Source: Bacteroidales bacterium
GTDB lineage: Bacteria; Bacteroidota; Bacteroidia; Bacteroidales; Tenuifilaceae
Reading direction: 5' to 3'
Assembly (NCBI GenBank): GCA_028708425.1
Contig: JAQVYY010000008.1
Span: forward strand, 7,799 to 71,798
DNA length: 64,000 bases
Numbering within the stretch: the first letter of the stretch is position 1; each line of letters begins with the position of its first letter. The notes beneath the pieces were generated by a model, which did no database searches, had not been told where the DNA came from, and saw nothing but the letters and a program-made list of their open reading frames with translations. Both the position numbers and the translations under genes were made by a program. Below, piece after piece: positions 483-62,333 of the stretch.

Positions 483-638
483 TAACCCACATTACTCATA
501 AAATTCGTTAAATAAAGATGAATGCAAATGCGGGTTACCCCGGCATAGTTGAGTCCAATTTTTTGGGAACAAAATTGGGTGTGAGACTTAGTCGCTACCG
601 GAGACAGTAATTATTCGAATGAATAATAATTGGGGTTA
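483..638 (+). mobile_element. MITE-like repeat family 1, copy 1 (full length)
   Basis: TAACCCAC...GATGAATGCAAATGCGGGTTACCCC...GAATAATAATTGGGGTTA; matches 14 other intergenic copies; TA at both ends. Confidence 0.85.
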
Positions 639-698
639 ATTTGCTTCTACTCTTCTTTTTGTATATTTACTAAAACACGTTATAAAACTATTTCAATC

Positions 699-1988
699 AT
701 GAAAAAAACAGCCTTTATTTCTTTAATGTTGCTTTTAAGCAGCCCTACCTTTGCTCAATTTACCGTGTCGGGTGAGTTGAGAGCCCGTGGGGAGTATCGC
801 AATGGTTACAAAACCATCCCTACATCTTTCACCAATTCGTTAATCATGGTAGGGCAGCGTACTCGGATAAACGCTACTTATAAAAGGGACAAACTTACCA
901 CCTATATCTCATTACAGGATGCCCGTATTTGGGGCGAAGATAAATGGAAGGCCGATAACAATGGGTTGGGCCTTTTTGAAGGGTGGGCCGAGTACAGGTT
1001 TAACCATAATATAGCCCTGAAAGCAGGGCGACAATCATTGATTTATGATGATCAGCGACTTTTTTGCTCTGGCGACTGGCGTACCTTTGCCGAAGCACAT
1101 GACTTAGCCCGCATGTTATTTACCTCTAACGACAAAACATTCCATTTTCACTTGGGTTATGCCATCAACAACAGTGGAGATATAGAGGGGGATGCTTTTT
1201 TAAGCGAATACTCCCTCAAGGCCACCCAGTATAAAAACATGGTTTACGGGCACCTGAATAAATCGTGGGCTAATGGTTTTAGTGCTTCTCTGGTAGGGGT
1301 CAGGGATGGGTTTCAGACAAGTCCCATTGGCACCTCACAACTCGATCCGTTGGGGGTTAATTACCGCACTACCTTTGGATCTTACCTTGAATACCAAACC
1401 CATGCATGGTTTTTTTCAGCCGCTGGCTACCTACAGCGCGGAACCGCTCGTGATAACCGGAATATAAAAGCTAACTTTTATTCAGCACGTGCAAAATATA
1501 TGTTCACACCCAAAAATACTCTCACGCTCGGGTACGACCATTATTCGGGCACCAATTTTTCTTCTGCCGATGCCCTTGCCGAAACCAGAACCTTTTCCAC
1601 CCTTTATGGGCCAGGTCATAAATTCCTGGGATATATGGATTATTTTGGGGTTCCCGAAAATCATGGTGCTGGCATTAACGACTTGCTACTACGTGTTAAT
1701 ATTGGAATTGGGGAAAAAGGAGGGTTGGAAGCTACCTTTCATCAGTTTAACCTACCTGAGGAGTACCTGAGAAATGGCACCCAGGTGGATAAGAATCTAG
1801 GACAGGAGTTAGATCTAGTTTACAGTTATAAACTCGATAATGTGGTGGCCATTAAGGCAGGGTTTTCCACATTTCTCTACACTGAGAGCATGGAGCAACT
1901 AAAAGGAAGGGCTCCTGGCCAGGGCGACAGCGCTCTGTTCGGATGGATTATGCTTGTGGTAAAGCCCACATTTTTCTCAACGAAATAA
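699..1988 (+). CDS. Alginate-export-family outer-membrane beta-barrel protein
   Basis: Signal peptide from ATG 699 (the TTG at 630 lies inside the repeat end); GELRARGEYRNGY, QRTRIN and SLQDARIWGE motifs; amphipathic beta strands. Confidence 0.7.
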   Translation: MKKTAFISLMLLLSSPTFAQFTVSGELRARGEYRNGYKTIPTSFTNSLIMVGQRTRINATYKRDKLTTYISLQDARIWGEDKWKADNNGLGLFEGWAEYRFNHNIALKAGRQSLIYDDQRLFCSGDWRTFAEAHDLARMLFTSNDKTFHFHLGYAINNSGDIEGDAFLSEYSLKATQYKNMVYGHLNKSWANGFSASLVGVRDGFQTSPIGTSQLDPLGVNYRTTFGSYLEYQTHAWFFSAAGYLQRGTARDNRNIKANFYSARAKYMFTPKNTLTLGYDHYSGTNFSSADALAETRTFSTLYGPGHKFLGYMDYFGVPENHGAGINDLLLRVNIGIGEKGGLEATFHQFNLPEEYLRNGTQVDKNLGQELDLVYSYKLDNVVAIKAGFSTFLYTESMEQLKGRAPGQGDSALFGWIMLVVKPTFFSTK

Positions 1989-2072
1989 AAAAATGAGTAA
2001 AGTTGTTGTATATAGCAAATACTACGCAATCATTGAGATTATAACCGATAAAACTTTATATGAGAAGTTTGC

Positions 2073-2615
2073 TTACTCTGTGGGAGGTTCAAACCCATAA
2101 ACAATTCCCTGAACAAAGTGGGTGGGTGTTTCGCCGTATCCACCTTTCGATTCGCGATTGGTAACTAGAATCACAAGGCCACCCATATTCACAGCGCGTT
2201 TTTTCATGCGAATGTCGGCACTACGTTTCGCTGCTTTAGCATTTCTACTCCTTGGTGACGACTTGGCTTCAACTTCACCTAAAGCGAAAAAACCTTCAAC
2301 ATCGTCCTTGTTGTCAGTAACGATTACCGTTTTCCAATCGCCCTCATCAATCATCTGAACTGCAACGGGGTTGAAATGCTCAATCCTACCATTCCGATAG
2401 ATAATTTGATGTATCTGTTTTCTGTCAACCTCTTTAACCTCAGTTTCACCATCTATCATATACGAAATCTTGCTTGATGAAACGCCCTGAACCATCACCG
2501 GTACTTTACGTCCACTTATAAGAACTACCGTATCCGAAAGCAGAGTGTCTTGTGCATACGTTCCCATAGCAAAAGCAAGGGGAAACCATATTACGAGAAA
2601 GAATATTTTTTTCAT
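2073..2615 (-). CDS. Hypothetical secreted protein
   Basis: 180-aa ORF with signal peptide; upstream TACCTTTG promoter motif. Confidence 0.7.
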   Translation of the reverse strand: MKKIFFLVIWFPLAFAMGTYAQDTLLSDTVVLISGRKVPVMVQGVSSSKISYMIDGETEVKEVDRKQIHQIIYRNGRIEHFNPVAVQMIDEGDWKTVIVTDNKDDVEGFFALGEVEAKSSPRSRNAKAAKRSADIRMKKRAVNMGGLVILVTNRESKGGYGETPTHFVQGIVYGFEPPTE

Positions 2616-2697
2616 AGTTTTAAAACTTCAAAGTTATGCTTGCGTTGTTAACGCAAACAAGATGCCAAAAATAGAGTGCCTTTAAATTTTAGTTTTA

Positions 2698-2705
2698 CAA
2701 AGGTA
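2698..2705 (-). promoter_or_regulatory. Bacteroidota -7 promoter element (TAnnTTTG)
   Basis: TACCTTTG on the minus strand ~80 bp upstream of the 2615 start. Confidence 0.5.
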
Positions 2706-2794
2706 TAAAAATAGAGCTTTTTTTGCAATTTTTATTTTTATTGTATTGGGGTAAAATTTAGCCAAATGCATCTATTAGCTAATATCTAAATCGC

Positions 2795-2802
2795 TAAATT
2801 TG
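2795..2802 (+). promoter_or_regulatory. Bacteroidota -7 promoter element (TAnnTTTG)
   Basis: TAAATTTG ~50 bp upstream of the plsC ATG. Confidence 0.5.
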
Positions 2803-2852
2803 CTCAAATAAATGTTTACGCTATTTTTGTAGAAAATTACTTGTCGTTTAGC

Positions 2853-3611
2853 ATGAAAAACTTTTTTACCCTTTACCTTGTTATGCCCATTGTATGGCTA
2901 CTATTTTTAGCTGTCTGCATTGTTTTTTTTATTGGCGATTTAATAGTCTGGCTTTTAACATTCTGGTGGGATAAAAGGCTCTACATCCTTCATAAGTATT
3001 CCATGGTGTGGGCATTGTTTCACGTTTGGGTGAACCCTTTTTGGAGAATTGATTTTGAGGGTGCTGAGAATGCGCAAAAAGACAAAACGTACATCATCGT
3101 TTCTAATCATCAGAGTGCCTTTGATATTGTTTTGCTTTATCGAATTAAGATGCATTTTAAGTGGGTTGCCAAACGCGAGCTGTTTCGAGTTCCCTTTATA
3201 GGTTGGAATTTGTGGTTAAATAAGCATATTGTAATTGATCGTGCAAGTATTAGTGGGGCTAAAAAGATGCTTTTGCAATCGCAAAAAAACATAAGTATGG
3301 GTAATTCTGTTCTGATTTTCCCCGAGGGCACCCGAAGTAAAGATGGGGCAATTAAGCGATTTAAGGACGGAGCCTTTGTATTGGCAAAAAAAACGAATAC
3401 CACCATGCTTCCCGTTGTTATTAATGGCGGCAAAGAGGTAGTTTTAAATAATGGGTATGCCCTAAAAGGTTCACAAACATTTAATGTAAAAATATTACCC
3501 GAGATTAGTCCCGAATCGTACAAGAATAAAAGTATTGATGAGCTGGGGAAAGATGTTCGCGATATTATGCGCTCGGAACATATGAAAATGGCACCCGAGT
3601 ACTATAAATAG
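2853..3611 (+). CDS. plsC: 1-acyl-sn-glycerol-3-phosphate acyltransferase
   Basis: NHQSAFD (HX4D) and IFPEGTRS motifs. Confidence 0.9.
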   Translation: MKNFFTLYLVMPIVWLLFLAVCIVFFIGDLIVWLLTFWWDKRLYILHKYSMVWALFHVWVNPFWRIDFEGAENAQKDKTYIIVSNHQSAFDIVLLYRIKMHFKWVAKRELFRVPFIGWNLWLNKHIVIDRASISGAKKMLLQSQKNISMGNSVLIFPEGTRSKDGAIKRFKDGAFVLAKKTNTTMLPVVINGGKEVVLNNGYALKGSQTFNVKILPEISPESYKNKSIDELGKDVRDIMRSEHMKMAPEYYK

Positions 3612-3694
3612 CAAGCTATGAAATTTAGGGTGGTTTTATTCAAATCTGGAGAACAATTATCTTATATTGCAAATCAAAATAAAAAGATACAGCT

Positions 3695-4213
3695 ATGAAT
3701 CCTAAGGTTAGTATAATTATGGGGAGTGCCTCCGACATGCCAGTAATGGAAGAGGCATGTAATATTTTAAACGATTTTAAAATCCCCTTTGAGGTTAATG
3801 CCCTTTCGGCTCACCGTACCCCCGACCAGGTTGCTGAACTTGCTCGGAATGCACACGAAAGAGGGATTAAGGTTATAATTGCTGGGGCTGGTGGTGCGGC
3901 ACATCTGCCTGGGGTTATTGCAGCCTTTACCCCAATACCCGTTATTGGCGTGCCAATAAAAGCATCAATTTCTATTGATGGGTGGGACTCAATACTGTCA
4001 ATTCTTCAAATGCCTGGTGGCATACCTGTTGCTACGGTTGCCCTAAACGGCGCGCGTAATGCAGGTATCCTCGCAGCACAAATTATTGCTACGGGCGAAA
4101 AGGATATTTTCGATAGGGTGGCATCGTTTAAGGTAAATTTAGCAAAGAAAGTAGTATCGGCTAACGCCGAGCTTGCGAGGTACAAATTCGAGTATAGAAC
4201 AAATGGAAAGTAA
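3695..4213 (+). CDS. purE: N5-carboxyaminoimidazole ribonucleotide mutase
   Basis: IIMGSASD, SAHRTP and AGAGGAAHLPG motifs. Confidence 0.97.
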   Translation: MNPKVSIIMGSASDMPVMEEACNILNDFKIPFEVNALSAHRTPDQVAELARNAHERGIKVIIAGAGGAAHLPGVIAAFTPIPVIGVPIKASISIDGWDSILSILQMPGGIPVATVALNGARNAGILAAQIIATGEKDIFDRVASFKVNLAKKVVSANAELARYKFEYRTNGK

Positions 4214-5109
4214 TGCCTAAATCCGCAAATAGTACTTGTGCAAAAAATAATTTTTGGAGGTTACTCTTTGTTACCTTTTTATTTGGAACTGTTTTTGCAC
4301 CAACGGCAACTGCCGATTTTCCCGAGGAGCAACCCGGAAGCAGGGCGGCATCTTTGGGTTATGGTACTACAGCTTTGGTCGATGGCTGGTCGGTTTTTTA
4401 TAACCAAGCTGCCATGGCGTACGCTACCAGTCCATGGGTAGGGGTGCACCACGAAAATAGGTTTATTACACCCGAGCTGGCCTTTAGCGCCTTAGGCGCT
4501 AGTATCCCAGTTAAAGTTGGAACCATAGGTTTGTCAATTAAGCGTTTGGGATTTAGCGAATTTAGCCAAACTAAAATAGGCTTAGCCTATGGTATGAAGC
4601 TCGCCCCAACATTTAGTGCTGGTGTTCAGCTAAATGGGCATCATGTGTTTATTGCTGGCGAGTATGGTAGCGCCATGGCTCTATCGGCTGAGGGCGGTAT
4701 ACTTTACAGCCCGTCGGAGAGTTTTAATGTTGGGTTTCGAGTTGTAAACCCAACCCGCAGTAAGTTTATTGAAGATCAACGCATTCCAACAACGTTCAAT
4801 CTTGGTATTGCATACCAAATTGGGCACATGGTTTTGTTAACCTCGGGAGTTGCTAAAACCCTGGATAGGCCATTCTCATTTAGCGCTGGAACAGAATTCT
4901 CGCCAATAAAACAGCTCTATATTAGGGCGGGTATGGCTACTGGTCCATCCATACTCTCATTTGGGGTAGGCTATAACGTTGCTAACTTTACTATTGATTT
5001 TGCATTTACCAGACACGAAATTTTAGGCTATACCCCTCATTTTTCGCTTGCCTACACCTTTGGTGGTATAAAAAACAGAAGCGACAAGATTGAAACAAAC
5101 CAGCTATGA
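4213..5109 (+). CDS. PorV/PorQ-family outer-membrane beta-barrel protein
   Basis: GSRAASLG...SVFYNQA N-terminal motif; alternating beta strands. Confidence 0.65.
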   Translation: MPKSANSTCAKNNFWRLLFVTFLFGTVFAPTATADFPEEQPGSRAASLGYGTTALVDGWSVFYNQAAMAYATSPWVGVHHENRFITPELAFSALGASIPVKVGTIGLSIKRLGFSEFSQTKIGLAYGMKLAPTFSAGVQLNGHHVFIAGEYGSAMALSAEGGILYSPSESFNVGFRVVNPTRSKFIEDQRIPTTFNLGIAYQIGHMVLLTSGVAKTLDRPFSFSAGTEFSPIKQLYIRAGMATGPSILSFGVGYNVANFTIDFAFTRHEILGYTPHFSLAYTFGGIKNRSDKIETNQL

Positions 5110-7178
5110 TTTGCAAAAGGCTTATAGCAACTGTTTTTATTTCTATTTTAGGTTCGTGGCTTTTAATGGGGCAGTCAACCGAGTCTGACATTCAGGGTAT
5201 TATTTCAAATATTATTGAAGATATTGTTGCTTCGAGCGAAGAGGATAATATCGATTTAGATGTATTGGTGGTGGATCTTATTTACTTTGCAGAAAACCCC
5301 ATAAATCTCAATACCACAACTTCCGAAGAGCTAGAGAAGCTGATTTTTTTATCCGATTTTCAGGTTAATGCCATAGTCGATTACCGTAAGAATAACGGTG
5401 CTTTCAAAACCAAATACGAGTTGCAAATGGTTATTGGGCTCGACCATTCAGATATCAATCGTCTCCTACCATTTGTTCGTATTGCCGATGCCGAGGAAAT
5501 TACCAAGCGCCGCCCCCTTTTTCAGTATGGCAAGCACGAGCTATTTGTCAGGGGGCATTCGCTAATCGAAAATCAGGTGGGATACACCCCTCCACCCGCC
5601 GATAATCCCGATGCAACACGCTTTGCGGGTAGTAAGTTGGGTTTGTATTCTCGCTATACGTACTCCACTAGGGGTGGTTTTCAGTTTGGTTTTGTAAGCG
5701 AAAAAGATCCGGGTGAAGAGTTTTTTAGGGGCTCAAATCCCTACGGGTTCGATCACTACTCGGCACATGTTCAGGTAAGCAATATAGGCGTGCTAAAAAA
5801 TTTGGTTGTAGGCGATTTTAATGCCGATTTTGGTCAGGGGCTCGCATTATGGACTAGCGCATCGTTTGGCAAGTCGCCCGACCCAATGGGCGTACGAAAA
5901 CGAGCCAAGGGGATTTTTCGATCTAGCTCAACCAACGAAAATAGGTTTTTACGAGGTGTTGGTGCCTCTGTTGCCATTGGTAAGTTTCAACTCTCTGCCT
6001 TTGGTTCATATAAAAAAATTGATGCAAACTTATCCGATTCGCTAGTTGATGGATCTTTTGAGTTTACCTCACTTCCTGTAAGTGGACTACACCGAACGCC
6101 CAGCGAAATAGCCAATAAGAAAAAGCTGAACGAATTTGTGGCAGGGGGGAATGTTTCGGTCTCGTTAAATAAGTTAAGAGCAGGCATTACCGGTTCGATT
6201 GTAAACCTAGATGGCGAATTCGATATGCCAAATCAACCCTACAGATACTTTGAACCACCGCTTACAAACCGAGTAAATTTGGGATTAGATGCTACCTATG
6301 GCATTGGTAACCATCTGGTTTTTGGCGAAGTGGCCAACACGGCCGGTTACGGTAGCGGAATTGTTTCGGGTGCGTTATTAAAAGTGCATCAACAGGTTAA
6401 CCTCTCGGTTGTGGGGCGATATTATGACAGGGATTTTAGTACGTATTACACATCTTCTTTTGCCGATGGGTCGTCGTCGTCAAACGAGCGTGGTGTTATG
6501 GTAGGGGTTAAAATATTGCCCTATCGCAACTGGCAAATCAATGGGTATGTCGATGCTTTTCAATCCGATTGGCTTAAGTTTGGCATTAATGCGCCCTCGC
6601 ACGGGCGCGATTACCTTCTCGAAGCAACCTATAGCCCCCGTTCACGATTAAGCTTTAATTTACGCTATAGGCTTAAACAAAAGGATAAGAATCAAATCGC
6701 AGAAAATGTGCAAATAAGACCAGTAGTGCCCTATGTGAAGCAAGGCATCAGATTCCATTTATCGTATAACCCAAGTAACGAAATATGGTTGAAAAGTCGT
6801 ATCGAGTTCTCGGCGTATAGCGAGGAGAGTAAGCCCAATGAGCATGGTGCCATGTTTTATCAGGATATATCGTACAGGCCGCAAAGAGTACCCATTGTGC
6901 TAACCGCACGTTTGGCAATTTTCGATACCGAATCGTGGAATACTAGAATTTATGCCTACGAGAATGATGTGCTGTACTACTTTTCGATACCTGCATACTA
7001 CTCGCAGGGCACAAGGGCATATCTTTTAGCTAAATATTCAGCGGGTAAAAATATTGATATTTGGCTTAGGGTTTCGCAAACTTTTTTTGCTAATATGGAG
7101 CAGCTGGGTACTGGGGTTACCCAAATAGATGGGCCTACCCGAAGCGATGCCCGTTTGCAGGTTAAGTTTAAGTTTTAG
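5106..7178 (+). CDS. Helix-hairpin-helix (ComEA-like) domain protein with C-terminal outer-membrane beta-barrel
   Basis: INLNTTTSEELEKL...NAIVDYRKNNGAFKTKYELQMVIGLD HhH motif; ends in ...LQVKFKF (C-terminal Phe beta-signal). Confidence 0.8.
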   Translation: MICKRLIATVFISILGSWLLMGQSTESDIQGIISNIIEDIVASSEEDNIDLDVLVVDLIYFAENPINLNTTTSEELEKLIFLSDFQVNAIVDYRKNNGAFKTKYELQMVIGLDHSDINRLLPFVRIADAEEITKRRPLFQYGKHELFVRGHSLIENQVGYTPPPADNPDATRFAGSKLGLYSRYTYSTRGGFQFGFVSEKDPGEEFFRGSNPYGFDHYSAHVQVSNIGVLKNLVVGDFNADFGQGLALWTSASFGKSPDPMGVRKRAKGIFRSSSTNENRFLRGVGASVAIGKFQLSAFGSYKKIDANLSDSLVDGSFEFTSLPVSGLHRTPSEIANKKKLNEFVAGGNVSVSLNKLRAGITGSIVNLDGEFDMPNQPYRYFEPPLTNRVNLGLDATYGIGNHLVFGEVANTAGYGSGIVSGALLKVHQQVNLSVVGRYYDRDFSTYYTSSFADGSSSSNERGVMVGVKILPYRNWQINGYVDAFQSDWLKFGINAPSHGRDYLLEATYSPRSRLSFNLRYRLKQKDKNQIAENVQIRPVVPYVKQGIRFHLSYNPSNEIWLKSRIEFSAYSEESKPNEHGAMFYQDISYRPQRVPIVLTARLAIFDTESWNTRIYAYENDVLYYFSIPAYYSQGTRAYLLAKYSAGKNIDIWLRVSQTFFANMEQLGTGVTQIDGPTRSDARLQVKFKF

Positions 7179-7240
7179 CAAAAAACCATATACATCCTCT
7201 TAGGGCTAAAAAAGGCAGGCATTATAATTAAACTAAACAG

Positions 7241-8038
7241 ATGGGAAAACAGCCAGATTTTATTCAAAAGGTACGACCTAAAAAGCAGCTCGGGCAGCAC
7301 TTTTTAACCGATACTAATATTGCCCAACGAATTGTTGATAGCCTTGATGCCTCGAATGTAGATGCAGTTCTAGAAATTGGGCCGGGCATGGGGGTGCTTA
7401 CCCAGTCGCTTTTAAACAGATTTGGTAAAAGGTTTTATGCTGCCGAAATTGATAGCGAATCTCTTTTTTACCTTAAATCGTTGCTGCCAGATTTAACCAG
7501 TAGGCTGCTTGAGGTCGACTTCCTTCGATACGATTTGTCGCAGATTACCACTGGCAAGCTGGCTATTATTGGAAATTTCCCTTACAATATTTCTTCCCAA
7601 ATTTTCTTTAAAGTCCTTAACGAGAGGGATTCGGTAACCGAAGTGGTGGGGATGCTTCAGCGTGAGGTTGCCCAACGTATTTGTGAGTCGCCTGGAACAA
7701 AAGTGTACGGAATCCTTAGCGTACTGCTGCAAGCATTTTATGATATCGAGTATCTGTTTACAGTAAATGAGGCTGTTTTTACACCGCCACCAAAGGTAAA
7801 ATCGGCGGTTATAAGGCTTACCCGAAACCAGACCGTGCGGTTAGGTTGCGATGAGGATATCTTCTTCCGATTGGTAAAAGCAGGGTTTAACCAACGGCGC
7901 AAAACCCTAAGGAATTCTGTTAAATCTGGATTTAATGGTTTTGTAGGCAATCACCCGTTGCTAAGTAAGCGTCCGGAGCAGCTGGGCGTTAATGAGTTTG
8001 TTGAGCTAACCAACTACATTGCAGGCGAAATATCCTAG
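7241..8038 (+). CDS. rsmA: 16S rRNA m6,2A dimethyltransferase (KsgA)
   Basis: KKQLGQHFL, LEIGPGMG and GNFPYNIS motifs. Confidence 0.97.
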   Translation: MGKQPDFIQKVRPKKQLGQHFLTDTNIAQRIVDSLDASNVDAVLEIGPGMGVLTQSLLNRFGKRFYAAEIDSESLFYLKSLLPDLTSRLLEVDFLRYDLSQITTGKLAIIGNFPYNISSQIFFKVLNERDSVTEVVGMLQREVAQRICESPGTKVYGILSVLLQAFYDIEYLFTVNEAVFTPPPKVKSAVIRLTRNQTVRLGCDEDIFFRLVKAGFNQRRKTLRNSVKSGFNGFVGNHPLLSKRPEQLGVNEFVELTNYIAGEIS

Positions 8039-9300
8039 GTCTTTGTATTTATTGCTTCAACAGGGTTTAATTTTGAGGCTTGCCAGGCAGGAGCAAAACC
8101 CGATAAAATACCGATTACTGCCGAGATGGTTATACCCAGAATTATATTGCTTAGCGATAGCGTAATGGTAAATTCCGAAACGCTGTTTACCAGTAACGAC
8201 CCGAGGAATATTAGCAGCAGTCCGATAGCACCCCCAATAATCGATAGTAAAACCGATTCGTAAAGGAATTGTACCAAAATGAATGTGTTTTTTGCGCCCA
8301 GCGCTTTTTGTATTCCAATTATGTTGGTGCGCTCCTTTACCGAAACAAACATAATATTTGCAATGCCAAAGCCACCAACAAGAATCGAGAAACCACCAAT
8401 AATCCAACCGGCCAAATTTATAGCCACAAAAATATTGTCAATGCCTTCCCTTAAAGTGCTAACCTGATTTAATGCAAAATCATCATCTTCAATAGGTTTT
8501 AACTTTCTAGCGGCCCGTAAAATACCCCGTAACTCATCCATAAGCTCTTCGGATGGAATTTCATCTTTGGCCTTTACCATTATGGTTGGCCCAGCATATC
8601 TGAAATCAATCATTAGTTTCGAAAAATTTGCAGGCACTACCACCAAAGGATCGTGACTTTCGCCGCCTCCAAATTGCGTACCCTCCTTTTTTATAACTCC
8701 TATTACCTCAACCAGATAGCCTCCAATTTTAATTGACTTACCAACGGGGTTTACATCAACAAATAGTTCGGTTGCAATATCATAACCCAGAACAGCTACC
8801 CTTCTCCCCATGGATAAGTCGAATGCCGAAAAATACCTTCCGCTTTCAATTTCAAAAGATCGAATATCTTCGTAGCTATCGGTTACCGCTAAAATAATTG
8901 TTTTGGGTGCAGAGCTCCTTTCATGTTCAACTAGCGAACGGAACGACAGCTGCAATGCGCTCGATTGCGCTGTAATGCTATTCGAGCGAATGATTTTTAA
9001 ATCATCGAGCGAGGGTTGAGGTCTATTCATATATTTCCACCAAGGATAGTTTCCACCCATAGACCATGGCCATTTTTGTACGTAAACAACGTTATCGCCT
9101 AACGAATCAAGACTTTGCCTAATGCTCTTTTCGAGCGAATCAAGTACAGTGAAAACCGAAACTATCGCAAAAATGCCTATGGTAATGCCAAATAGCGATA
9201 AAAACGTACGCATTTTATTTACCTTTATCGACTGGTATGCAAAACTCATACTCTCACGAATTAGTTTTACGTAGATAATAATGTTGGCAATGGGTTTCAT
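8035..9300 (-). CDS. ABC transporter permease (MacB/FtsX family)
   Basis: RTFLSLFGITIGI, GIANIMFVSVKERT..IGIQKALGA and ASKLNPVEA motifs. Confidence 0.9.
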   Translation of the reverse strand: MKPIANIIIYVKLIRESMSFAYQSIKVNKMRTFLSLFGITIGIFAIVSVFTVLDSLEKSIRQSLDSLGDNVVYVQKWPWSMGGNYPWWKYMNRPQPSLDDLKIIRSNSITAQSSALQLSFRSLVEHERSSAPKTIILAVTDSYEDIRSFEIESGRYFSAFDLSMGRRVAVLGYDIATELFVDVNPVGKSIKIGGYLVEVIGVIKKEGTQFGGGESHDPLVVVPANFSKLMIDFRYAGPTIMVKAKDEIPSEELMDELRGILRAARKLKPIEDDDFALNQVSTLREGIDNIFVAINLAGWIIGGFSILVGGFGIANIMFVSVKERTNIIGIQKALGAKNTFILVQFLYESVLLSIIGGAIGLLLIFLGSLLVNSVSEFTITLSLSNIILGITISAVIGILSGFAPAWQASKLNPVEAINTKT

Positions 9301-9332
9301 CTGTCTATTTATTTGTTTTTAAAGGAACACAT

Positions 9333-9390
9333 GGAACATCCATGGAGTAGCCATTCTCCTTTGTGTTAGCACCGCTAACATGAATGTTTC
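9333..9390. repeat. Repeat family 3, unit 1 (58 bp; GGAACATCCATG...CATGAATGTTTC inverted ends)
   Basis: Inverted ends shared with units at 9423-9480 and 24495-24552. Confidence 0.6.
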
Positions 9391-9422
9391 ATCTGTCTGT
9401 TTTTAGATTTTAAAGGTACAAA

Positions 9423-9480
9423 GGAACATCCATAGGCTGACTATTTTCGTAAGGGCTAAAATTATTATCATGGATGTTTC
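9423..9480. repeat. Repeat family 3, unit 2 (58 bp)
   Basis: GGAACATCCATA...CATGGATGTTTC, 90 bp downstream of unit 1. Confidence 0.6.
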
Positions 9481-9744
9481 ATAGTGTTTATCATTTGGTT
9501 CTCAATTGCCACACGGAGCTCGTTTTGTGTGTTTTTAGCAAGAGTAGTCCCTCGAATCTTAAGAATAGACTCCTAAACTTGTCAAAGGTAAAAAAAGGAA
9601 AATGAAAAAAACTATAACTATTTATTATTTTAAGACCATTTAAGAGTGAATAATTCAAAGGTTTTGGCCATTTTTGTATTCTAAAATAGCACTATTTTTT
9701 TTTACTACCCAACTTTTTATTTTATATCGTTGAATACTAGGTTA

Positions 9745-11262
9745 ATGAAGCAAATTAAGTCGGCACTAATTTCTGTGTACCATAAGGATGGACTCAACGA
9801 ACTTGTAGAAGAGCTTAGCAAGCATGGTGTTAAAATATTCTCAACTGGGGGAACGCTAAAATTTATCGAGGAATGTGGTGTTAAAGTCGAGGCTGTTGAA
9901 AATCTCACCAGCTACCCTTCAATACTTGGAGGCAGAGTAAAAACTTTACACCCCAAGGTGTTCGGAGGAATCCTGGCCCGCCGAGAAAATCAAGACGATC
10001 TTTCGCAGTTAAATCGGTATCAAATTCCTGAAATCGATTTGGTTGTCGTTGATCTGTATCCCTTTGAGGAGACGGTAGCTAGCAATGCGGATGAGTCGGC
10101 AATAATCGAAAAAATTGATATTGGTGGAGTAACCCTAATACGAGCAGCTGCTAAAAACTTTCGCGATGTGGCGATAGTGTCCAGCAGGTATCAGTATCAG
10201 GATTTTATTAGGTTGTATAAAGCGAATAATGGGTCAACAACCCTTGCCGAACGTAAACATCTGGCAAAGCAGGCGTTCAATATGTCTAGCCATTACGATA
10301 CCGCTATTTTCGAGTATTTTTCCGAAGAAATAACGCCCGAGGCGTTTAAGCAGAGCGTGCAGCACGCCAAAACCTTGCGATATGGAGAGAATCCACACCA
10401 GCAAGGTGTTTTTTATGGAGGTATCGATAAGCTGTTTGACCAGCTGCATGGGAAAGAAATTTCGTACAACAATCTGCTTGATATTGATGCTGCCATAAAT
10501 CTTATCAGTGAATTTACAGAGCCTACCATGGCTATACTAAAGCATAATAATGCTTGCGGATTGGCATCCCGATCAACTCTGGTTGATGCATGGAATGCTG
10601 CCCTTGCAGGCGATCCAATTTCAGCCTTTGGGGGGGTGATAATTTGCAATAGAGAGATTGATGTTGATACCGCCACCGAAATGAATAAGCTGTTTTTCGA
10701 AATAGTGTTGGCACCAGGTTTCAACGATGAAGCATTACAAACGCTAAAATCTAAAAAGAATAGAATTATTCTAGAATTAAAAGATTTTACGCTTCCTAAA
10801 ACTCAGTTTCGAAGCTTACTAAATGGTGTTTTACAGCAAGATAAGGATAGTAAAACAGAGGCTAAGGCTGATATGAAAACCGTTACTAACCAGGAACCAT
10901 CCCAAGAGGAGTATGGCGATATGGTATTTGCCAATATAGTTGTTAAGCACTCAAAATCCAATGCCATTGTTTTGGCGAAAAATAAGCAGCTAATCGCAAG
11001 CGGTGTTGGTCAAACCTCAAGAGTTGATGCCCTTAAACATGCCATTGATAAGGCGAAAAGTTTTAGCTTTACCCTCAATGGCGCAGTAATGGCTTCCGAT
11101 GCATTTTTCCCCTTTGCCGATTCGGTCGAAATAGCCCATAAGGAGGGTATTGCCGCTGTAATACAGCCAGGGGGGTCAATACGCGATCAGGAAACTATCG
11201 ATTATTGTAACCACCATTCGATGGCTATGGTTTTTACTGGAATAAGACACTTTAAACATTAA
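9745..11262 (+). CDS. purH: Bifunctional AICAR transformylase / IMP cyclohydrolase
   Basis: ALISVYHKDG, GRVKTLHP, LRYGENPHQ and ASDAFFPF motifs; ATG at 9745. Confidence 0.97.
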   Translation: MKQIKSALISVYHKDGLNELVEELSKHGVKIFSTGGTLKFIEECGVKVEAVENLTSYPSILGGRVKTLHPKVFGGILARRENQDDLSQLNRYQIPEIDLVVVDLYPFEETVASNADESAIIEKIDIGGVTLIRAAAKNFRDVAIVSSRYQYQDFIRLYKANNGSTTLAERKHLAKQAFNMSSHYDTAIFEYFSEEITPEAFKQSVQHAKTLRYGENPHQQGVFYGGIDKLFDQLHGKEISYNNLLDIDAAINLISEFTEPTMAILKHNNACGLASRSTLVDAWNAALAGDPISAFGGVIICNREIDVDTATEMNKLFFEIVLAPGFNDEALQTLKSKKNRIILELKDFTLPKTQFRSLLNGVLQQDKDSKTEAKADMKTVTNQEPSQEEYGDMVFANIVVKHSKSNAIVLAKNKQLIASGVGQTSRVDALKHAIDKAKSFSFTLNGAVMASDAFFPFADSVEIAHKEGIAAVIQPGGSIRDQETIDYCNHHSMAMVFTGIRHFKH

Positions 11263-16940: not shown

Positions 16941-17543
16941 ATCTTCCTCCCATCCCGAGGGGGTAATGTTGTAATCGACCTTTACAAAATTTATTATATC
17001 GGGGAAGAATATTAGGAATTGATCCCGAATATATGAGTAGTGGTACGTGAGCGTTTCAATTGCAAATTTTGTTTCATCGGGAAGCGAGGTTACCCTGCTC
17101 ATAATTTGGAGCGTATTTTCAACCCCTTCAATTTTATGATAAAAGTAAAGCCTGTCACTCTGAATTAGTAGAGGTAATAGGGAGCGCATTGCTTTCGGTA
17201 ACTCCCTGTAGCGCAAAATCATCTGGTAGTAAAATTTACGGGTAAACCCCCGGAGTGGGTATGGGGAAAATGTTCCCCAGTAACGAGCTAAAAAGTGGTC
17301 GAAAAACACATCTACCACAACACCAGCATATTTCCGATAGCCCTGCCGGAACAGCTTTCGTACCTCAGCCGTAGCAGGATGAGTATCGGTGTAAAAGTCG
17401 ATGGCTCTATGCAGGTAAATGCCTTTTTGTATGGTGTCGGGGTAGCGACCCAATGAGCGCCCTTTTACAAAATCGCCCATAAAATTACCCATCCTAATAT
17501 CTACGTCATCACCAGAAAGATACAAGTGGGCTAAAAAATTCAT
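16884..17543 (-). CDS. acpH: Acyl-carrier-protein phosphodiesterase (AcpH/DUF479 family)
   Basis: MNFLAHLYLS, GNFMGDFVKG, HRAIDFYTD and DVFFDHFLA motifs. Confidence 0.85.
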   Translation of the reverse strand: MNFLAHLYLSGDDVDIRMGNFMGDFVKGRSLGRYPDTIQKGIYLHRAIDFYTDTHPATAEVRKLFRQGYRKYAGVVVDVFFDHFLARYWGTFSPYPLRGFTRKFYYQMILRYRELPKAMRSLLPLLIQSDRLYFYHKIEGVENTLQIMSRVTSLPDETKFAIETLTYHYSYIRDQFLIFFPDIINFVKVDYNITPSGWEEDLVKSGTIELKENKEENSE

Positions 17544-17688: not shown

Positions 17689-17836
17689 TAACCCCAATTA
17701 TTCATCCAAATAATTGCTGTCTCCGACAGCAACTAGGCCTCACAACCAATCTAGTTGCCCAAAATTGGGCTCAACTAAGTCGGGGTAACCCGCATTTGCA
17801 TTTATCTTTACTAAATTTGATGAATAGTGCGGGTTA
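17689..17836 (-). mobile_element. MITE-like repeat family 1, copy 2 (full length)
   Basis: Reverse complement of the family consensus; TA at both ends. Confidence 0.9.
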
Positions 17837-22388: not shown

Positions 22389-22536
22389 TAACCCGCATTA
22401 TTCATCAAATTTGTTAAAGATGAATGCAAATGCGGGTTACCCTAGCTTAGTGGAGCCTAATTTTGGGCAACTAAATTGGTTGTGAAACTTAGTCGCTGTC
22501 GGCGACAGCAATTATTCGAATGAATAATTGGGGTTA
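22389..22536 (+). mobile_element. MITE-like repeat family 1, copy 3 (full length)
   Basis: TTAACCCGCATTATTCATC...GAATAATTGGGGTTAA. Confidence 0.9.
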
Positions 22537-24087: not shown

Positions 24088-24232
24088 TATCACGCATTAT
24101 TCATCAAATTGTAAAGATGAATGCAAATGCGGGTTACCCCAACCTAGTAAAACCCAATTTTCGGCAATAAAATATGTGTGAGGTTTAGTCGTTGCTACAA
24201 ACGGCTATTATTCGGACGAATAATTGGGGCTA
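24088..24232 (+). mobile_element. MITE-like repeat family 1, copy 4 (degenerate)
   Basis: CGCATTATTCATCAAATT...GCGGGTTACCCC...GAATAATTGGGGCTA with many substitutions. Confidence 0.8.
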
Positions 24233-24334: not shown

Positions 24335-24482
24335 TAAACCCGCATTATTCATCAAATTTAGTAAAGATAAATGCAAATGCGCGTTACCCCGACTTAGTTG
24401 AGCCCAATTTTGGGCAACTAGATTGGTTGTGAAACCTAGTCGCTGTCGGAGACAGCAATTATTCGAATGAATAATTGGGGTA
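24335..24482 (+). mobile_element. MITE-like repeat family 1, copy 5 (full length)
   Basis: Near-consensus copy. Confidence 0.9.
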
Positions 24483-24494
24483 AAGAACTGTTAT

Positions 24495-24552
24495 GAGCCA
24501 TCCATGGCAATATCGTTACCACACACGGCAACGGCTATTACATGGATGTTCC
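24495..24552. repeat. Repeat family 3, unit 3 (58 bp, reverse orientation)
   Basis: GAGCCATCCATG...CATGGATGTTCC followed by ATCTGTACCTT, the reverse complement of the flanks at 9321-9332 and 9412-9422. Confidence 0.6.
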
Positions 24553-24585
24553 ATCTGTACCTTATGAAAATAAAAAAACAGACAG

Positions 24586-25948
24586 ATGAAAATTCATTTT
24601 ATAGCCATAGGTGGAAGTGCCATGCACAGCTTGGCTATTGCCATTAAGCAAAAAGGGTACTGTGTATCGGGTTCCGACGACGAGATTTTTGACCCCTCAC
24701 GTAGCCGACTGCAGAATCATGGGTTGCTGCCCAATAAGATAGGTTGGTTTCCAGATAAGCTAGATATAAGGTGTTGATGCCGTTGTTCTCGGCATGCATG
24801 CCCGTGCCGATAATCCCGAGCTAGCCCGTGCAAAAGAGCTAGCAATTAAAATATACTCGTATCCCGAGTACCTGTATGAGCAAACCAAAAGTAAAACCAG
24901 GGTGGTAATTGGAGGGAGTCACGGCAAAACTACCATTACATCAATGGTTATGCACGTGCTAAAGGATGCAGGCCGAAAATTCGACTATATGGTAGGTGCT
25001 CACATTGATGGGTTTGAGAATATGGTGGGGCTATCTGAAAGTGCTAACATTGCAATTTTTGAGGGCGATGAGTATTTAACATCTCCCATTGACCCCCGCC
25101 CAAAGTTCCATTTATACAAGCCCCATATTGCCATTATTTCTGGTATTTCGTGGGATCATATCAACGTGTTTCCTACTTTTGAGCAGTATCTAATGCAATT
25201 CGAGCTATTTACCCATACCATTGAGCCCCATGGGCATCTAATTTACTGTGCTAGCGATAAGTTTACAGCTGAGGTGGGTGCCAAAGCATCCGAAAGTACT
25301 AATACTGTATCCTACGTTGCCCATGCCCATAAAATTAGCAATAGTAAGATGTATTTAGACACGGAGAACGGGGAGGTTGAGCTTAATGTTTTTGGAACTC
25401 ATAATATGGAGAATATATCGGCAGCCAAAGAGGCTTGTAAGCTCTTGGGTATAAGTGATAAACAGTTCTATAAATCCATATCAACTTTTAAAGGGGCGGC
25501 CAGGCGGTTGCAGCTAATAAAAAAAGGTGCCACAACCGATGTTTTTCTCGATTTTGCGCATGCGCCATCAAAAGTAAGGGCAACCGTAAAAGCTTTGAAA
25601 GAAACCTATCCCCACCGAAAACTTGTGGCGTGTTTAGAGTTGCACACCTTTAGTAGTTTAAATAAAAACTTTTTAAAGGAGTATGCCGAAACTTTAGACG
25701 ATGCTACACAGCCCCTAGTGTACTACAATCCGAGAACGCTTGAACATAAAAAGCTGCCTCCCATAAACAGCGAAATGGTAGCTGATAGCTTTAGGAATGG
25801 CAACCTAAGGGTTTTCGATAATGGATTAGATTTGTTTCAGTATCTTTTTGATATGGAGTGGAGTAATACTAACCTATTGCTGATGTCGTCGGGTAATTTT
25901 GCTAACCTAAACGTAAATCAGCTAGCCGAAACTATTGCTGGTGGTTAA
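24586..25948 (+). pseudogene. Mur ligase (Mpl/MurC-like), split by a one-base frameshift near 24766-24770
   Basis: ORF 24586-24777 (HFIAIGGSAMHSLA...GSD) continues in another frame as GVDAVVLGMHARADNPEL...GSHGKTT; true lesion or sequencing error. Confidence 0.8.
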
Positions 25949-26585: not shown

Positions 26586-26666
26586 CCCTCTTCTTATAAA
26601 TCCTGTTAAGGGTTCGTCATTTTGAGCGTTAGCGAAGAATCTCAAAAGATTTACCGGATAACAGTG
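26586..26666 (+). mobile_element. MITE-like repeat family 2, left-truncated copy
   Basis: Collinear with 53756-53836 (CCCTCTTCTTATAAA...GTCATT.TGAGC..TAGCGAAGAATCTCAAAAGATTTACCGGA.AACAGTG); left TIR missing. Confidence 0.75.
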
Positions 26667-27426: not shown

Positions 27427-27572
27427 TAACCTGCATTATTCGTCAAATTTGTTAATGAATGTAAATGCGGGTTACCGCAACATATTGGAGGTCAATTTTG
27501 GGTAACAAAATTGGTTGTGAGACTTAGTCGCTGTCGGAGACCCCCAATTATTCGAATGAATAGTTGGGGTTA
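27427..27572 (+). mobile_element. MITE-like repeat family 1, copy 6
   Basis: TAACCTGC...GAATAGTTGGGGTTA. Confidence 0.85.
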
Positions 27573-29615: not shown

Positions 29616-29633
29616 CTTATGGTATGGGTTCAG

Positions 29634-29682
29634 CTAAGTCGCTGTCGGAGACAGCAATTATTTGAATGAATAATTGGGGCTA
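29634..29682 (+). mobile_element. MITE-like repeat family 1, copy 7 (right-end fragment)
   Basis: CTAAGTCGCTGTCGGAGACAGCAATTATTTGAATGAATAATTGGGGCTA. Confidence 0.8.
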
Positions 29683-30523: not shown

Positions 30524-30577
30524 TAGCCCCCCCCATTATTCATCAAATTTGTAAAAGATGAATACAAATGCGGGTTA
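30524..30577 (+). mobile_element. MITE-like repeat family 1, copy 8 (left hairpin module only)
   Basis: TAGCCCCCCCCATTATTCATCAAATTTGTAAAAGATGAATACAAATGCGGGTTA. Confidence 0.75.
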
Positions 30578-33929: not shown

Positions 33930-34035
33930 TAACCCGCATTATTCATCAAATTTAGTGAAGATGAATACAAATGCGGGTTATCCCAACATAGTCGCTGCCG
34001 AAGACAGCAATTATTCGAATGAATAGTTGGGGTTA
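33930..34035 (+). mobile_element. MITE-like repeat family 1, copy 9 (central deletion)
   Basis: Both termini intact; the GCCCAATTTTGGGC hairpin region is absent. Confidence 0.85.
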
Positions 34036-46462: not shown

Positions 46463-46869
46463 TAACCCGCATTATTCATTAATTTTCATTGGTGTCCGGT
46501 TAATATTTATAGATTCCTCCCTACGGTTGGAATGACAGGGCGTTGAGTTGTATTTGAGAGGGGAGGGCTTGGCTAGCGGCGAAGCCGCTAGCCAAGCCCT
46601 CCCCTAAAAACTAAACATTTGTCATTGACAAAGCCATTTCTATTTTCAACGGTTTTGTCGAACATACGTTTCAGAGCAAAACGCAGTGAAGCGAAGAATC
46701 TATAATGTTTAACTTTATTTTTACCGGACAATAGTGATTAATTTTATTAAAGATGAATGCAAATGCGGGTTACCCCGACTTAGTTGAGCCCAATTTTGGG
46801 TAACAAAATTGGTTGAGAAACTTAGTCGCTGCCGGAGACAGCAATTATTCGGATGAATAGTTGGGGTTA
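46463..46869 (+). mobile_element. MITE-like repeat family 1, copy 10, interrupted by a family-2 insertion
   Basis: Left end 46463-46486; resumes at 46746 to GGGGTTA at 46869. Confidence 0.85.
46487..46736 (+). mobile_element. MITE-like repeat family 2, long 250-bp copy with 9-bp TSD ATTAATTTT
   Basis: TIRs CATTGGTGTCCGG / CCGGACAATAGTG; identical 9-mers at 46478-46486 and 46737-46745; internal inverted REP-like motifs and a perfect 22-bp hairpin at 46559-46605. Confidence 0.88.
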
Positions 46870-49323: not shown

Positions 49324-49472
49324 TAACCCGCATTATTCATCAGCTTTGTTAAAGAATGAATGCAAATGTGGGTTACCCCGACTTAGTTGAGCCCAATTTT
49401 TGGTAACAAAATAGGTAGTGAAGCATAGTCGCTGTCGGTAACAGCAATTGTTCGAATGAATAATTTGGGTTA
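49324..49472 (+). mobile_element. MITE-like repeat family 1, copy 11
   Basis: TTAACCCGCATTATTCATC...GAATAATTTGGGTTAA. Confidence 0.88.
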
Positions 49473-53574: not shown

Positions 53575-53724
53575 TAACCCCAAATTATTCATTCGAATAA
53601 TTGGGGTATCTGGCGGCGATTAGGTTTCACAACCAGTTTTTTTTAACCAAAATTGGGTTTTACTAGGTCGGGGCAACCCGCATTTGCATTTACCTTTTAT
53701 AAATTTGATGAATAATGCGGGCTA
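53575..53724 (-). mobile_element. MITE-like repeat family 1, copy 12
   Basis: Reverse-complement copy; TA at both ends. Confidence 0.85.
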
Positions 53725-53737: not shown

Positions 53738-53836
53738 CACTATTGTCCAGAGAATCCCTCTTCTTATAAAACCTGTTAAAATTTTGTCATTCTGAGCATT
53801 AGCGAAGAATCTCAAAAGATTTACCGGACAACAGTG
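53738..53836 (+). mobile_element. MITE-like repeat family 2, 99-bp copy with 9-bp TSD ATATAAAAT
   Basis: TIRs CACTATTGTCC / GGACAACAGTG; identical 9-mers at 53729-53737 and 53837-53845. Confidence 0.88.
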
Positions 53837-53920
53837 ATATAAAATGAAGTAAAGCCGTTTGTTTTTTATTAAAAGTAGCTGAATGTATGTGGTTACCAAC
53901 TAAAATTTTTAATTTTACAG

Positions 53921-55081: not shown

Positions 55082-55229
55082 CAGCCCCAATTATTCATTC
55101 AAATAATTGTCGTCTCCGGCAATAACTAATGCTCACAACCAGCTTTGTTGCCCAAAATTGGGCTTCACTAGGTCGGGGTAACCCGCATTTGTATTCATCT
55201 TTAATAAATTTGATGAATAATGCGGGTTA
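55082..55229 (-). mobile_element. MITE-like repeat family 1, copy 13
   Basis: Reverse-complement copy. Confidence 0.88.
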
Positions 55230-59785: not shown

Positions 59786-59802
59786 GGCAAAATATTGTTT
59801 TG

Positions 59803-59893
59803 TTAGTCGAGCCCAATTTTGGGTAACAAGATTTGGGTAAGAGGTTTACTTGCTGTTGGAAATCCCAATTATTCGAATTAATAATTGGGGTTA
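59803..59893 (+). mobile_element. MITE-like repeat family 1, copy 14 (right module only, degenerate)
   Basis: TTAGTCGAGCCCAATTTTGGG...AATAATTGGGGTTA. Confidence 0.75.
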
Positions 59894-61251: not shown

Positions 61252-62052
61252 CTAGTATTGCGGAACAAAAAGGTAGGTAATACTCCCCTTTTGCCGCGAC
61301 GGGGCAATACCCGATACGGTGAAAATGCTTTTTTTTGCAGCTGCAATGGCTGCTCTGTTTATACAATCATCAATTACTGAACTTGCAGCATCAATGCTAG
61401 CATGGCTAACCGTGCCATTGCGAAGAACTTCAATGTCAACAACCACACGACCGCCATTCTCGCATTTGTACGATGGCACCGGTAAGCGCATGGCTTTTCT
61501 ATCTTTCAGAAAGTAGCTGATAACCGATGGCCCTTTAAATTGCGTTTCGTCCTGTTCGGGTATAATCTTTTCTTCAACATTTGGAATTTCTTCGGTTAGC
61601 ACATCCTGTTCCTCTTCCCATCTTTGTCGGTTTTCTTCCATTTGTTCCCTAATACGCTCGGCTTCTTGGTACAGCTCGTCAGCATCAATATTTTTTTCAT
61701 CGGTAAGCCCCGCGTTTAGGTCGTCTTTGGTAGCATCAATGGCAATGTTTTTTATTGCCTCGTACTCTTTTGTGGGGTCGAGAGCATCATCGGGAAGTAG
61801 AGGTTCTTTCTCTTCGGGTGGTGGCTCGGGTAGTATTTCGTACTGTCTTTCGAAGTCAACGTTAACCTCTGCGTAGCGTATGTTCGAACTTCCGCTTAGC
61901 TCTAGGATGAAGAACAGAATGGCGAGCACAAGGTTAAACGCAATGGTGCCAAGTATTCCAACTTTATGTTTATTCCAAAACACAAAAAAGCGATGTGCAA
62001 CAGCATCGAGCCATATCTCGAAACGGTCAAACTTGTTGGACGTGTTGGTCAT
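61252..62052 (-). CDS. TonB-like energy-transducer protein (single TM, acidic linker, TonB_C-like domain)
   Basis: N-terminal TM, PEPPPEE linker, GGRVVVDIEV..NG and QKGSITYLF motifs. Confidence 0.65.
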   Translation of the reverse strand: MTNTSNKFDRFEIWLDAVAHRFFVFWNKHKVGILGTIAFNLVLAILFFILELSGSSNIRYAEVNVDFERQYEILPEPPPEEKEPLLPDDALDPTKEYEAIKNIAIDATKDDLNAGLTDEKNIDADELYQEAERIREQMEENRQRWEEEQDVLTEEIPNVEEKIIPEQDETQFKGPSVISYFLKDRKAMRLPVPSYKCENGGRVVVDIEVLRNGTVSHASIDAASSVIDDCINRAAIAAAKKSIFTVSGIAPSRQKGSITYLFVPQY

Positions 62053-62080
62053 TAACTCAATTTCTGTTTAGTACAAAAAT

Positions 62081-62113
62081 AGTAAACCCAAGGTTAAATC
62101 CCTTAGGTTTACT
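62081..62113. terminator. Probable bidirectional intrinsic terminator
   Basis: AGTAAACCCAAGG / CCTTAGGTTTACT flanked by A and T runs. Confidence 0.55.
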
Positions 62114-62185
62114 GTTTTTTTGGTTGCGTACGGTAAGGTGTAGGCTTTAATGTTAACCTACTCTAGGTAAGTTATGGTATCTACC

Positions 62186-62333
62186 TAACCCCAATTATTC
62201 ATTCAAATAATTGCTGTCTCCAACAGCGACTAAGTCTCACAACCAATCTAGTTGTCCAAAATTGGGCTCGACTATGTCGGGGTAACCCGCATTTGTATTC
62301 ATCTTTTACAAATTTGATGAATAATGCGGGCTA
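62186..62333 (-). mobile_element. MITE-like repeat family 1, copy 15
   Basis: Reverse-complement near-consensus copy; TA at both ends. Confidence 0.9.

Follow-up and report, generated by a model that had tools for sequence, protein, structure and literature searches.

An abundant family of TTAA-flanked miniature elements in an uncultured Bacteroidales, very probably derived from an IS1380-family insertion sequence

Results

A Repeat Family in the Window and in Its Genome

The stretch of DNA analysed here (the window) is 64 kb long and comes from G000, a 3.51-Mb draft metagenome-assembled genome (MAG) of 112 contigs and about 40% G+C that represents an uncultured Bacteroidales. Between its genes lie the copies of a short repeat that belongs to a family of MITEs, or miniature inverted-repeat transposable elements. 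The original prediction had described 15 copies, all intergenic and in both orientations, and all were borne out: BLASTN with one copy as the query found a family member at 15 of 15 positions, nhmmer gave the same result, and a separate repeat search of the window grouped the same copies independently. Of these, ten have the full length (139-150 nt), another is complete but split by an element nested in it, and the remaining four are partial (Table 1).

Table 1. Copies of the MITE in the window, with the 4-mers found at their left and right ends.
Feature	Position	Strand	Flanks (left / right)
Full-length copy, 150 nt, small internal insertions	486..635	+	TTAA / TTAA
Full-length copy	17692..17833	-	ATAA / TTAA
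Full-length copy	22392..22533	+	TTAA / TTAA
Diverged full-length copy, 78% identical to copy 22392	24091..24229	+	TTAT / CTAA
Full-length copy	24339..24480	+	TAAA / TAAA
Full-length copy, ~150 nt upstream of the tRNA gene at 27719-27790	27430..27569	+	TTAA / TTAA
Right-end fragment, model positions 105-157	29632..29680	+	CTAA after the right end
Solo 48-nt left hairpin: terminal repeat and internal inverted copy	30527..30574	+	TTAG / TTAA
100-nt internal-deletion derivative, both ends kept	33933..34032	+	TTAA / TTAA
Full copy, left-hairpin loop interrupted by an unrelated ~257-nt element	46466..46866	+	TTAA / TTAT (outer flanks)
Full-length copy	49327..49469	+	TTAA / TTAA
Full-length copy; a contig of run X14 reads straight through	53578..53721	-	CTAA / CTAA
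Full-length copy	55085..55226	-	TCAG / TTAA
5'-truncated copy, model positions 67-156	59804..59890	+	TTAA after the right end
Full-length copy	62189..62330	-	CTAA / CTAA

A search profile (nhmmer) built from the ten full-length window copies gave 574 matches in G000, 310 of them near full length. Merging overlapping palindromic double matches left 561 non-overlapping loci, of which 308 are full length, and the hundreds of genomic copies expected from the density in the window are thus present. Together the loci make up 1.85% of the genome (65.1 kb) at a density of about 160 per Mb, and they are dispersed over most of the 112 contigs. The unit is a 142-bp consensus that runs from CCC to GGG and codes for nothing; where open reading frames (ORFs) cross copies, they are short and of an incidental kind. 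Just 2 of the 308 full copies fall within an ORF of 100 aa or more, though 84% of G000 is coding (these values come from crude ORF calls). Multicopy, short (below about 600 bp), non-coding, bounded by terminal inverted repeats, and flanked by target duplications, the repeats have all the properties by which bacterial MITEs are recognised from sequence, and they constitute a real and very abundant family of mobile elements without a transposase.

Termini, Target Duplication, and Empty Sites

The terminal inverted repeats are imperfect and 14-16 bp long (CCCGCATTATTCATC on the left, CCCCAATTATTCATTC on the right, 14 of 16 positions matching). Over 262 end-anchored copies the flanking bases are, in per cent, T76 T93 A97 A75 before CCC and T73 T92 A92 A74 after GGG. 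Two models fit this profile: a TA duplication around an element whose terminal bases are A...T, as had been proposed in the form of ACCC...GGGT termini, or a 4-bp duplication around CCC...GGG ends. The models differ in that left and right 4-mers other than TTAA are expected to be identical as direct repeats only under the second. Such pairs flank 61 of 263 copies (CTAA 22, TTAT 12, TTAG 10, ATAA 7, and others), against a mean of 8.7 and a maximum of 18 in 2000 shuffles; pairs identical as reverse complements number just 3. Flank positions 1 and 4 agree between left and right 209 and 202 times, compared with about 154 expected. Because the non-TTAA flanks co-vary as direct repeats far above the shuffled expectation, the target duplication is 4 bp long, with TTAA strongly preferred and CTAA, TTAT, TTAG, and ATAA used less often, and the ends of the element are CCC...GGG. 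The TA seen earlier is the centre of this duplication, to which the A of ACCC also belongs.

Two sites that are filled in a sister species are empty in G000. One is filled on contig C15 of G007 and reads ...AAACTTTAAAAATATCG... on C76 of G000; the other is filled on contig C198 of G003 and reads ...CATATTAAGCAAAAAT... on C84. Each empty site has a single TTAA, and at both filled sites TTAA-type 4-mers stand on either side of a CCC...GGG element. A site of this kind looks the same whether it never received an element or lost one by precise excision. The intergenic DNA of the sister species is too diverged (genes 66-86% identical) for base-precise comparison of the window copies with their empty counterparts; at the site orthologous to copy 55085, G007 has no element, in a spacer that is not alignable.

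Autonomous Elements with the Same Ends

Metagenome contigs were scanned with TTAACCCSMATTATTCAT, which gave at least 120 loci. The MITE and the insertion sequences (ISs) found among them have 14-bp ends in common, CCCG[C/A]ATTATTCAT, and TTAA flanks. The element at L123:10404-12150 is 1747 bp long, reads TTAA-CCCGCATTATTCAT...ATGAATAATCCGGG-TTAA, and contains an ORF of 435 aa, whose score is 323 bits with the IS1380-family model NF033539 of NCBIfam (cut-off 180) and 391 bits with PF13701 of Pfam. A Pfam scan of this transposase returned PF13701 and PF01609 only, with no piggyBac model, and a sequence search against solved structures gave no match. Five further loci, L142 (1598 bp), L070 (1599 bp), L154 (1656 bp), L157, and L090, have homologous transposases beside the same ends. 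The ISs measure 1.6-1.75 kb, their flanks are of the TTAA type wherever both ends are present, and the transposases of the six loci are 34-74% identical to one another. In ISfinder, the IS1380 family is characterised by ends that start with CC and by duplications of 4-5 bp. Every autonomous element that we found with the ends of the MITE encodes an IS1380-family transposase, which speaks against the IS630 and IS982 parentage suggested at the outset, the IS982 models themselves not having been searched.

The likeness continues inside the left end. There both the L123 element and the MITE have an internal inverted repeat with CCCCGAC after it, and the AATGCGGG..CCCCGAC block matches at 16 of 18 positions, suggesting that the MITE looks like two fused modules because it inherited the architecture of an IS end, and not because two MITEs were joined.

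In more distant members of the IS1380 family the end motif CCYSNATTATKCAY persists, both on Pseudanabaena and alphaproteobacterial plasmids, where the transposases are about 33% identical, and in 11 of 301 Bacteroidales genomes, where they are 32-51% identical. The Pseudanabaena plasmid copy examined has TTAG and CTAG flanks. Among the 120 metagenome loci listed, 29 contain other small elements of 47-404 nt with both ends matching the motif and TTAA-type flanks; their sizes cluster at about 175, 188, and 219 nt, on soil and sediment contigs. An element of 226 nt with perfect CCCGCATTATTCAT ends and TTAA on both sides was also seen in two related IMG/VR phage contigs (L046:2146-2376 and L047:~140-160). 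Its interior is unrelated to that of the Bacteroidales MITE. Phages are a possible route for the spread of such elements.

Search for a Partner in G000

When the transposases of L123, L142, L070, and L154 were compared with G000 by tblastn, no match was obtained, and no contig end of G000 resembles an IS end of this CCCG clade. A search of the genus with NF033539 returned a different IS1380 clade (in G008, in G009, and as a remnant on C70 of G000), an IS1634-like element, and an unrelated small contig, none of them with the ends of the MITE. Pairing terminal repeats 0.4-4 kb apart in G000 was swamped by the density of the MITE, with ordinary genes lying between copies. The one clean candidate (C70:20468-22070) proved to be an NtrC-type response-regulator gene between two MITE remnants. 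Metagenomes that house the G000 species do contain contigs that share blocks of about 80% identity with the L142-type transposase, and one of these (1596 nt, run X14) has TTAACCCGCATTATTCAT as its very end. The depth of these contigs does not scale with that of G000 (ratios of about 10.6, 1.0, and 1.4), so the contigs are not assignable to this genome.

G000 has a resident high-copy IS of another kind. About 20 contig ends (CCTAAATTGAGCGAT...) carry the same 121-127 nt (for example C45:39790-39915, both ends of C58, and C110:1-126); the IS ends in CCTAAATTGAGCGATTTGTGC, and its interior is missing from the MAG. It is found at 15-25 times the depth of G000 in three metagenomes. A remnant at C70:18890-19409, which is 92% identical to the G008 element L011 (L011:301-3008), places it in the IS1380 family. 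Its ends, its NNTA-type flanks, and its transposase clade are all unlike what the MITE requires. Besides this IS, two identical 1642-bp copies of another were noted at G000:C64:50854-52495 and C64:63972-65613 (L014 and L015). Their 522-aa transposase reads as IS1634-like, and one of the copies is inserted in a copy of the MITE.

Distribution and Age

An exact 25-mer of the MITE, sought in 185,579 species genomes, matched in only one other species, the sister G003. By similarity, the MITE occurs in 4 of 15 species of the genus (about 570 candidates in G000, about 6 in G003, about 7 in G007, and 2 in G011), and among these 15 the amplification burst is limited to the G000 species. It was not found in 26 other sampled genera of the family and order. 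Diverged homologues of 73-85% identity are present in 4 of 400 other genomes of the order, spread over four other families. The lineage specificity that had been proposed is supported, with few carriers in the genus, a single burst, and diverged relatives in a handful of other genomes. BLASTN of the consensus against a plasmid collection gave no match. Near-identical DNA of the G000 species occurs in landfill, manure, sediment, sludge, and wastewater metagenomes.

In one 73%-identical homologue from another family of the order (L182, G179:C78:10725-10870), both arms of the left hairpin have changed in step (CCTGAACT... and ...AGTTCAGG), and the block CTTAGTCGCTGTCGGAGACAG is kept letter for letter. 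This block was considered as an invariant core and rejected, being not specially conserved within G000 and absent from the insertion sequences.

The copies in G000 have a mean identity of 88.7% to the consensus (about 11% divergence) and a mean pairwise identity of 81%, with a single pair reaching 98% or more. No empty allele appeared in the Logan contigs of five metagenomes from different origins, copies being entered or crossed at every window site examined, although such contigs drop rare variants, among which rare empty alleles could escape. Given this drift, the filled sites in five metagenomes, and the lack of a transposase of the matching clade in the assembly, the family is probably an old burst that is now stranded and immobile. 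One G003 copy is 98% identical to the G000 consensus, yet the genes of the two species are 66-80% identical, and the site is empty in G000. Long after the species had separated, therefore, the family still had an active source, and either a conserved master has been maintained in each lineage or the source moved horizontally.

Fold and Derivatives

The 142-nt consensus is predicted to fold into a 45-nt left hairpin and a three-armed right domain, with a minimum free energy of -55.6 kcal/mol (z = -6.4 against dinucleotide shuffles), in agreement with the multi-hairpin interior described from the window copies. The hairpins are formed by an inward inverted copy of the terminal repeat at each end. 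The family also has several kinds of shorter member in G000. Left hairpins standing alone number 102; each is about 48 nt long and consists of the terminal repeat and its internal inverted copy. In addition there are 48 pieces of the right end, forms of 100 nt with an internal deletion, and 28 palindromes of about 28 nt, TTAA-CCCCAATTATTCnnnnGAATAATTGGGG-TTAA, in which little more than two ends are joined back to back. The short forms themselves have TTAA at their borders, and it is therefore probable that the inverted copies of the terminal repeat inside the element have acted as alternative ends. There is also a long variant of 245 nt, of which 12 left ends were found.

Seven copies of the ~245-nt variant are gathered on one segment (L009, G000:C45:20001-39915, at ~2140-10900 and 17211-17459 within it). 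Six have the same orientation and a spacing of 1.4-2.1 kb, and they separate small cassettes. From a reading of the translations, and not from family searches, one cassette encodes an XRE-type helix-turn-helix protein with two small proteins resembling a ParE/RelE-type toxin pair, and this cassette is duplicated; others hold a second such pair, a Fic-like 346-aa protein, and further genes. A sequence of about 94 nt upstream of the MITE is common to four units. The whole resembles an array of cassettes that the element has either built or punctuated.

Selection on the Fold and Orientation of Copies

Rfam has no family on the MITE, either for the whole window at the gathering score or for one copy at E values up to 1. 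Over 309 copies, stem changes that break pairing number 1477 and compensatory ones 182; double stem changes number 293 against 219 expected, most of them at one pair that marks a subfamily. The covariation test thus gave no convincing support, and there is no evidence of selection on the fold itself.

Orientation, in contrast to a random placement, is strongly biased. Between co-directional genes 116 of 159 full copies (73%) point with the genes (p = 6e-9); with partial copies counted as well, the figure is 197 of 292. The G-rich strand is preferred as well, by 153 of 235 copies (153:82). Co-oriented and anti-oriented copies stand at 64:20 where the genes are on the G-rich strand and at 20:20 where they are not, so that gene and strand effects are confounded, and on a fragmented assembly the effects of transcription and replication on orientation are not separable. 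Copies lie nearer to the upstream stop codon (median 63 nt) than to the next start codon (110 nt). One metatranscriptome contig extends from the upstream gene 90 nt into copy 55085, a weak sign of co-transcription since the run may contain DNA. The bias could come from selection on effects in the transcript or from an insertion bias linked to replication.

Discussion

Origin of the Family

The copy number, the length of the target duplication, the empty sites, the termini shared with IS1380 elements, and the absence of a partner from the assembly allow us to address how the family arose. We consider it very probable that these 142-bp elements, with IS1380-type ends and insertion at TTAA, derive from an IS1380-family IS; mobilisation in trans, the use of internal repeats as ends, and present immobility are what we infer beyond this. 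An IS1380-type transposase of the DDE class, supplied in trans, would bind both ends of the MITE and insert it at TTAA or, more loosely, at NTAN, and repair of the 4-bp staggered cut would duplicate the target. Internal copies of the terminal repeat, when taken as alternative ends, would yield the 48-nt and 28-nt mini-derivatives. In this way the family would have been amplified to about 560 loci in one Bacteroidales species, and its stranded copies would now survive in intergenic DNA, carried along in 3' untranslated regions (3' UTRs). The original prediction made the MITE depend on the existence of empty sites and of related elements bearing a transposase, and both were found; it also asked for a comparison with known non-coding RNA and REP families, and here the Rfam search gave no match and a target duplication is present.

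Several observations weigh against this derivation. No autonomous copy with the termini of the MITE was found in G000 or in the three MITE-bearing sister species, and for this reason trans-mobilisation rests on ends shared with elements of unrelated metagenome contigs. A partner could have been missed for technical reasons, as the MAG drops the interiors of repeats and holds even the resident high-copy IS as contig ends only. Beyond the 14-bp repeat and one subterminal block, the interior of the MITE matches no IS that we found. Finally, a purely neutral fossil does not predict that 73% of copies between co-directional genes should point with them.

Among the alternatives, a TA-duplicating MITE with ACCC...GGGT ends, moved by an IS630/Tc1-mariner-type or IS982-type transposase, has in its favour that TA is the most conserved flanking dinucleotide (93-97%) and that Correia and RUP, well-known bacterial MITEs linked to IS630-type partners, duplicate TA. 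It is nevertheless very improbable. The outer T and A co-vary between left and right as direct repeats, which would be impossible if A...T were the terminal bases of the element; empty sites have one TTAA and filled sites two; and all the autonomous elements found with these ends encode an IS1380 transposase. A mover closer at hand would be the resident IS1380-family IS of G000 (15-25 copies, CCTAAATTGAGCGAT ends, like L011 of G008), in which case the family would still be mobile. This IS is abundant, as its contig ends and its depth in three metagenomes show, the C70 remnant puts it in the right family, its ends start with CC as those of the MITE do, and both have AATT at positions 5-8. However, its terminal repeat matches that of the MITE at only about 8-10 of 21 positions (by eye), its flanks are of the NNTA and not the TTAA type, and BLASTP at 1e-5 shows no similarity of its transposase to the TTAA/CCCG clade. 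The MITE copies, moreover, have diverged by about 11%, hardly any pairs are nearly identical, and insertion polymorphism was not observed. We regard this proposal as improbable.

The MITE could also be, or have turned into, a structured module of RNA or DNA with a function (stabilising a 3' UTR, terminating transcription, or binding a protein), and so be kept by selection and not be a selfish fossil alone. The stable fold, the co-orientation with genes, the proximity to upstream stop codons, and the metatranscriptome contigs that run from genes into copies are all consistent with such a role, as is the G003 copy that resembles the G000 consensus far more closely than the genes of the two species resemble each other. 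On the other hand, the stems decay mainly by unpaired single changes, double changes exceed expectation only modestly and are concentrated in one subfamily-defining pair, Rfam stays without a match up to E = 1, the sequence as read shows no U-run after any hairpin, and the orientation bias is equally explicable by the replication strand. We think that maintenance by selection is unlikely. As for a palindromic repeat of the REP/BIME kind, spread by a RAYT/IS200-type tyrosine (HUH) transposase, the MITE does resemble one in its hairpins, intergenic placement, high copy number, and G-rich strand bias; REP/BIME elements, however, make no target duplication, whereas the MITE has one of 4 bp, and its ends are true inverted repeats of the kind common to elements of DDE transposases. 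This origin can be practically discounted.

Relation to Known Systems

The MITE is a new family of a familiar kind of element rather than a new mechanism. With the metagenome members of the IS1380 family (which includes IS1380, ISEcp1, and IS942; NF033539, PF13701) it shares ends and TTAA flanks, but it has no transposase gene, measures 142 bp, and has an interior unrelated to theirs save for the left subterminal block. Correia (NEMIS) of Neisseria, RUP of Streptococcus pneumoniae, and ERIC are hairpin-forming, intergenic elements present in hundreds of copies and co-transcribed with genes (PMC3184786, PMC10969869). The MITE resembles them in size (about 100-160 bp), copy number, placement, and hairpins, and differs in its 4-bp duplication, its IS1380 partner family, and its lack of sequence similarity to them. 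Its load is comparable to that of the MaeMITEs of Microcystis aeruginosa, with 517 copies and 1.8% of the genome (PMC2779907). For Nezha of Anabaena and Nostoc, too, genomes with the MITE lack the matching IS, and filled and empty orthologous sites were the basis for inferring mobility (PMC3184786). Unlike these two, the present MITE belongs to a different phylum and has different termini and a different partner family.

Seamless excision is a hallmark of piggyBac. With piggyBac and its MITEs the present family has in common the TTAA duplication, the CCC...GGG termini, and the subterminal inverted repeats; it differs in being prokaryotic and in a less strict target, as CTAA, TTAT, TTAG, and ATAA also occur. 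That piggyBac and IS1380 are related is an accepted view (PMC5718144; bioRxiv 10.1101/2021.09.26.461848). Our literature search returned no publication connecting IS1380 with TTAA in bacteria and none on MITEs derived from IS1380, and neither topic is mentioned in a 2024 review of prokaryotic MITEs.

A broader proposal can be put forward tentatively, although we hold it more doubtful than not. The clade of IS1380 that has CCCG[C/A]ATTATTCAT ends and its many MITE families (that of G000, the 175-, 188-, and 219-nt classes, and the 226-nt phage element), may form a widespread prokaryotic system that has the target, end chemistry, and ancestry of piggyBac, with TTAA integration, CCC/GGG ends, and possibly seamless excision; independently of this, the 73% co-orientation may reflect selection on a role in transcripts. 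If such a system exists, TTAA specificity predates the eukaryotic piggyBac lineage, and a compact bacterial TTAA-specific transposase of about 435 aa is at hand.

The family is a well-sampled case, with 263 end-anchored full copies and two empty sites, and it points to one IS1380 clade that duplicates TTAA and ends in CCC/GGG, both hallmarks of piggyBac. Within the family the load, the clean statistics of the duplication, and the orientation bias stand out. About 160 copies per Mb is among the denser MITE loads in bacteria. The MITE accounts for about 2% of G000 and can be masked by those who annotate Bacteroidales MAGs of landfill, manure, and wastewater origin. That its orientation is so strongly biased is a concrete and testable hint that elements of this type matter for transcripts or for replication.

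Other Repeats in the Window

The element nested in the loop of the left hairpin of copy 46466 lies at about 46481-46737. It is about 257 nt long, is unrelated to the MITE, ends in CATTGGTGTCCGGTTAA and TTACCGGACAATAGTG, and has an 8-9-bp direct repeat, TTAATTTT. It is also seen at 26586-26676 and 53756-53846 of the window. Within it lies a palindrome of 43 nt, rich in G+C (GGGGAGGGCTTGGCTAGCGG..CCGCTAGCCAAGCCCTCCCC), that C45 and C92 contain as well.

A second stretch of about 100 nt (24492-24592) lies just downstream of the MITE copy at 24339-24480 and is separate from it. A search of Rfam with this stretch at E values up to 1 returned nothing beyond chance matches to miRNAs. Several copies, 72-83% identical, are present in most genomes of the genus, including those free of the MITE, and the stretch is a candidate for a separate, older conserved repeat or a small RNA.

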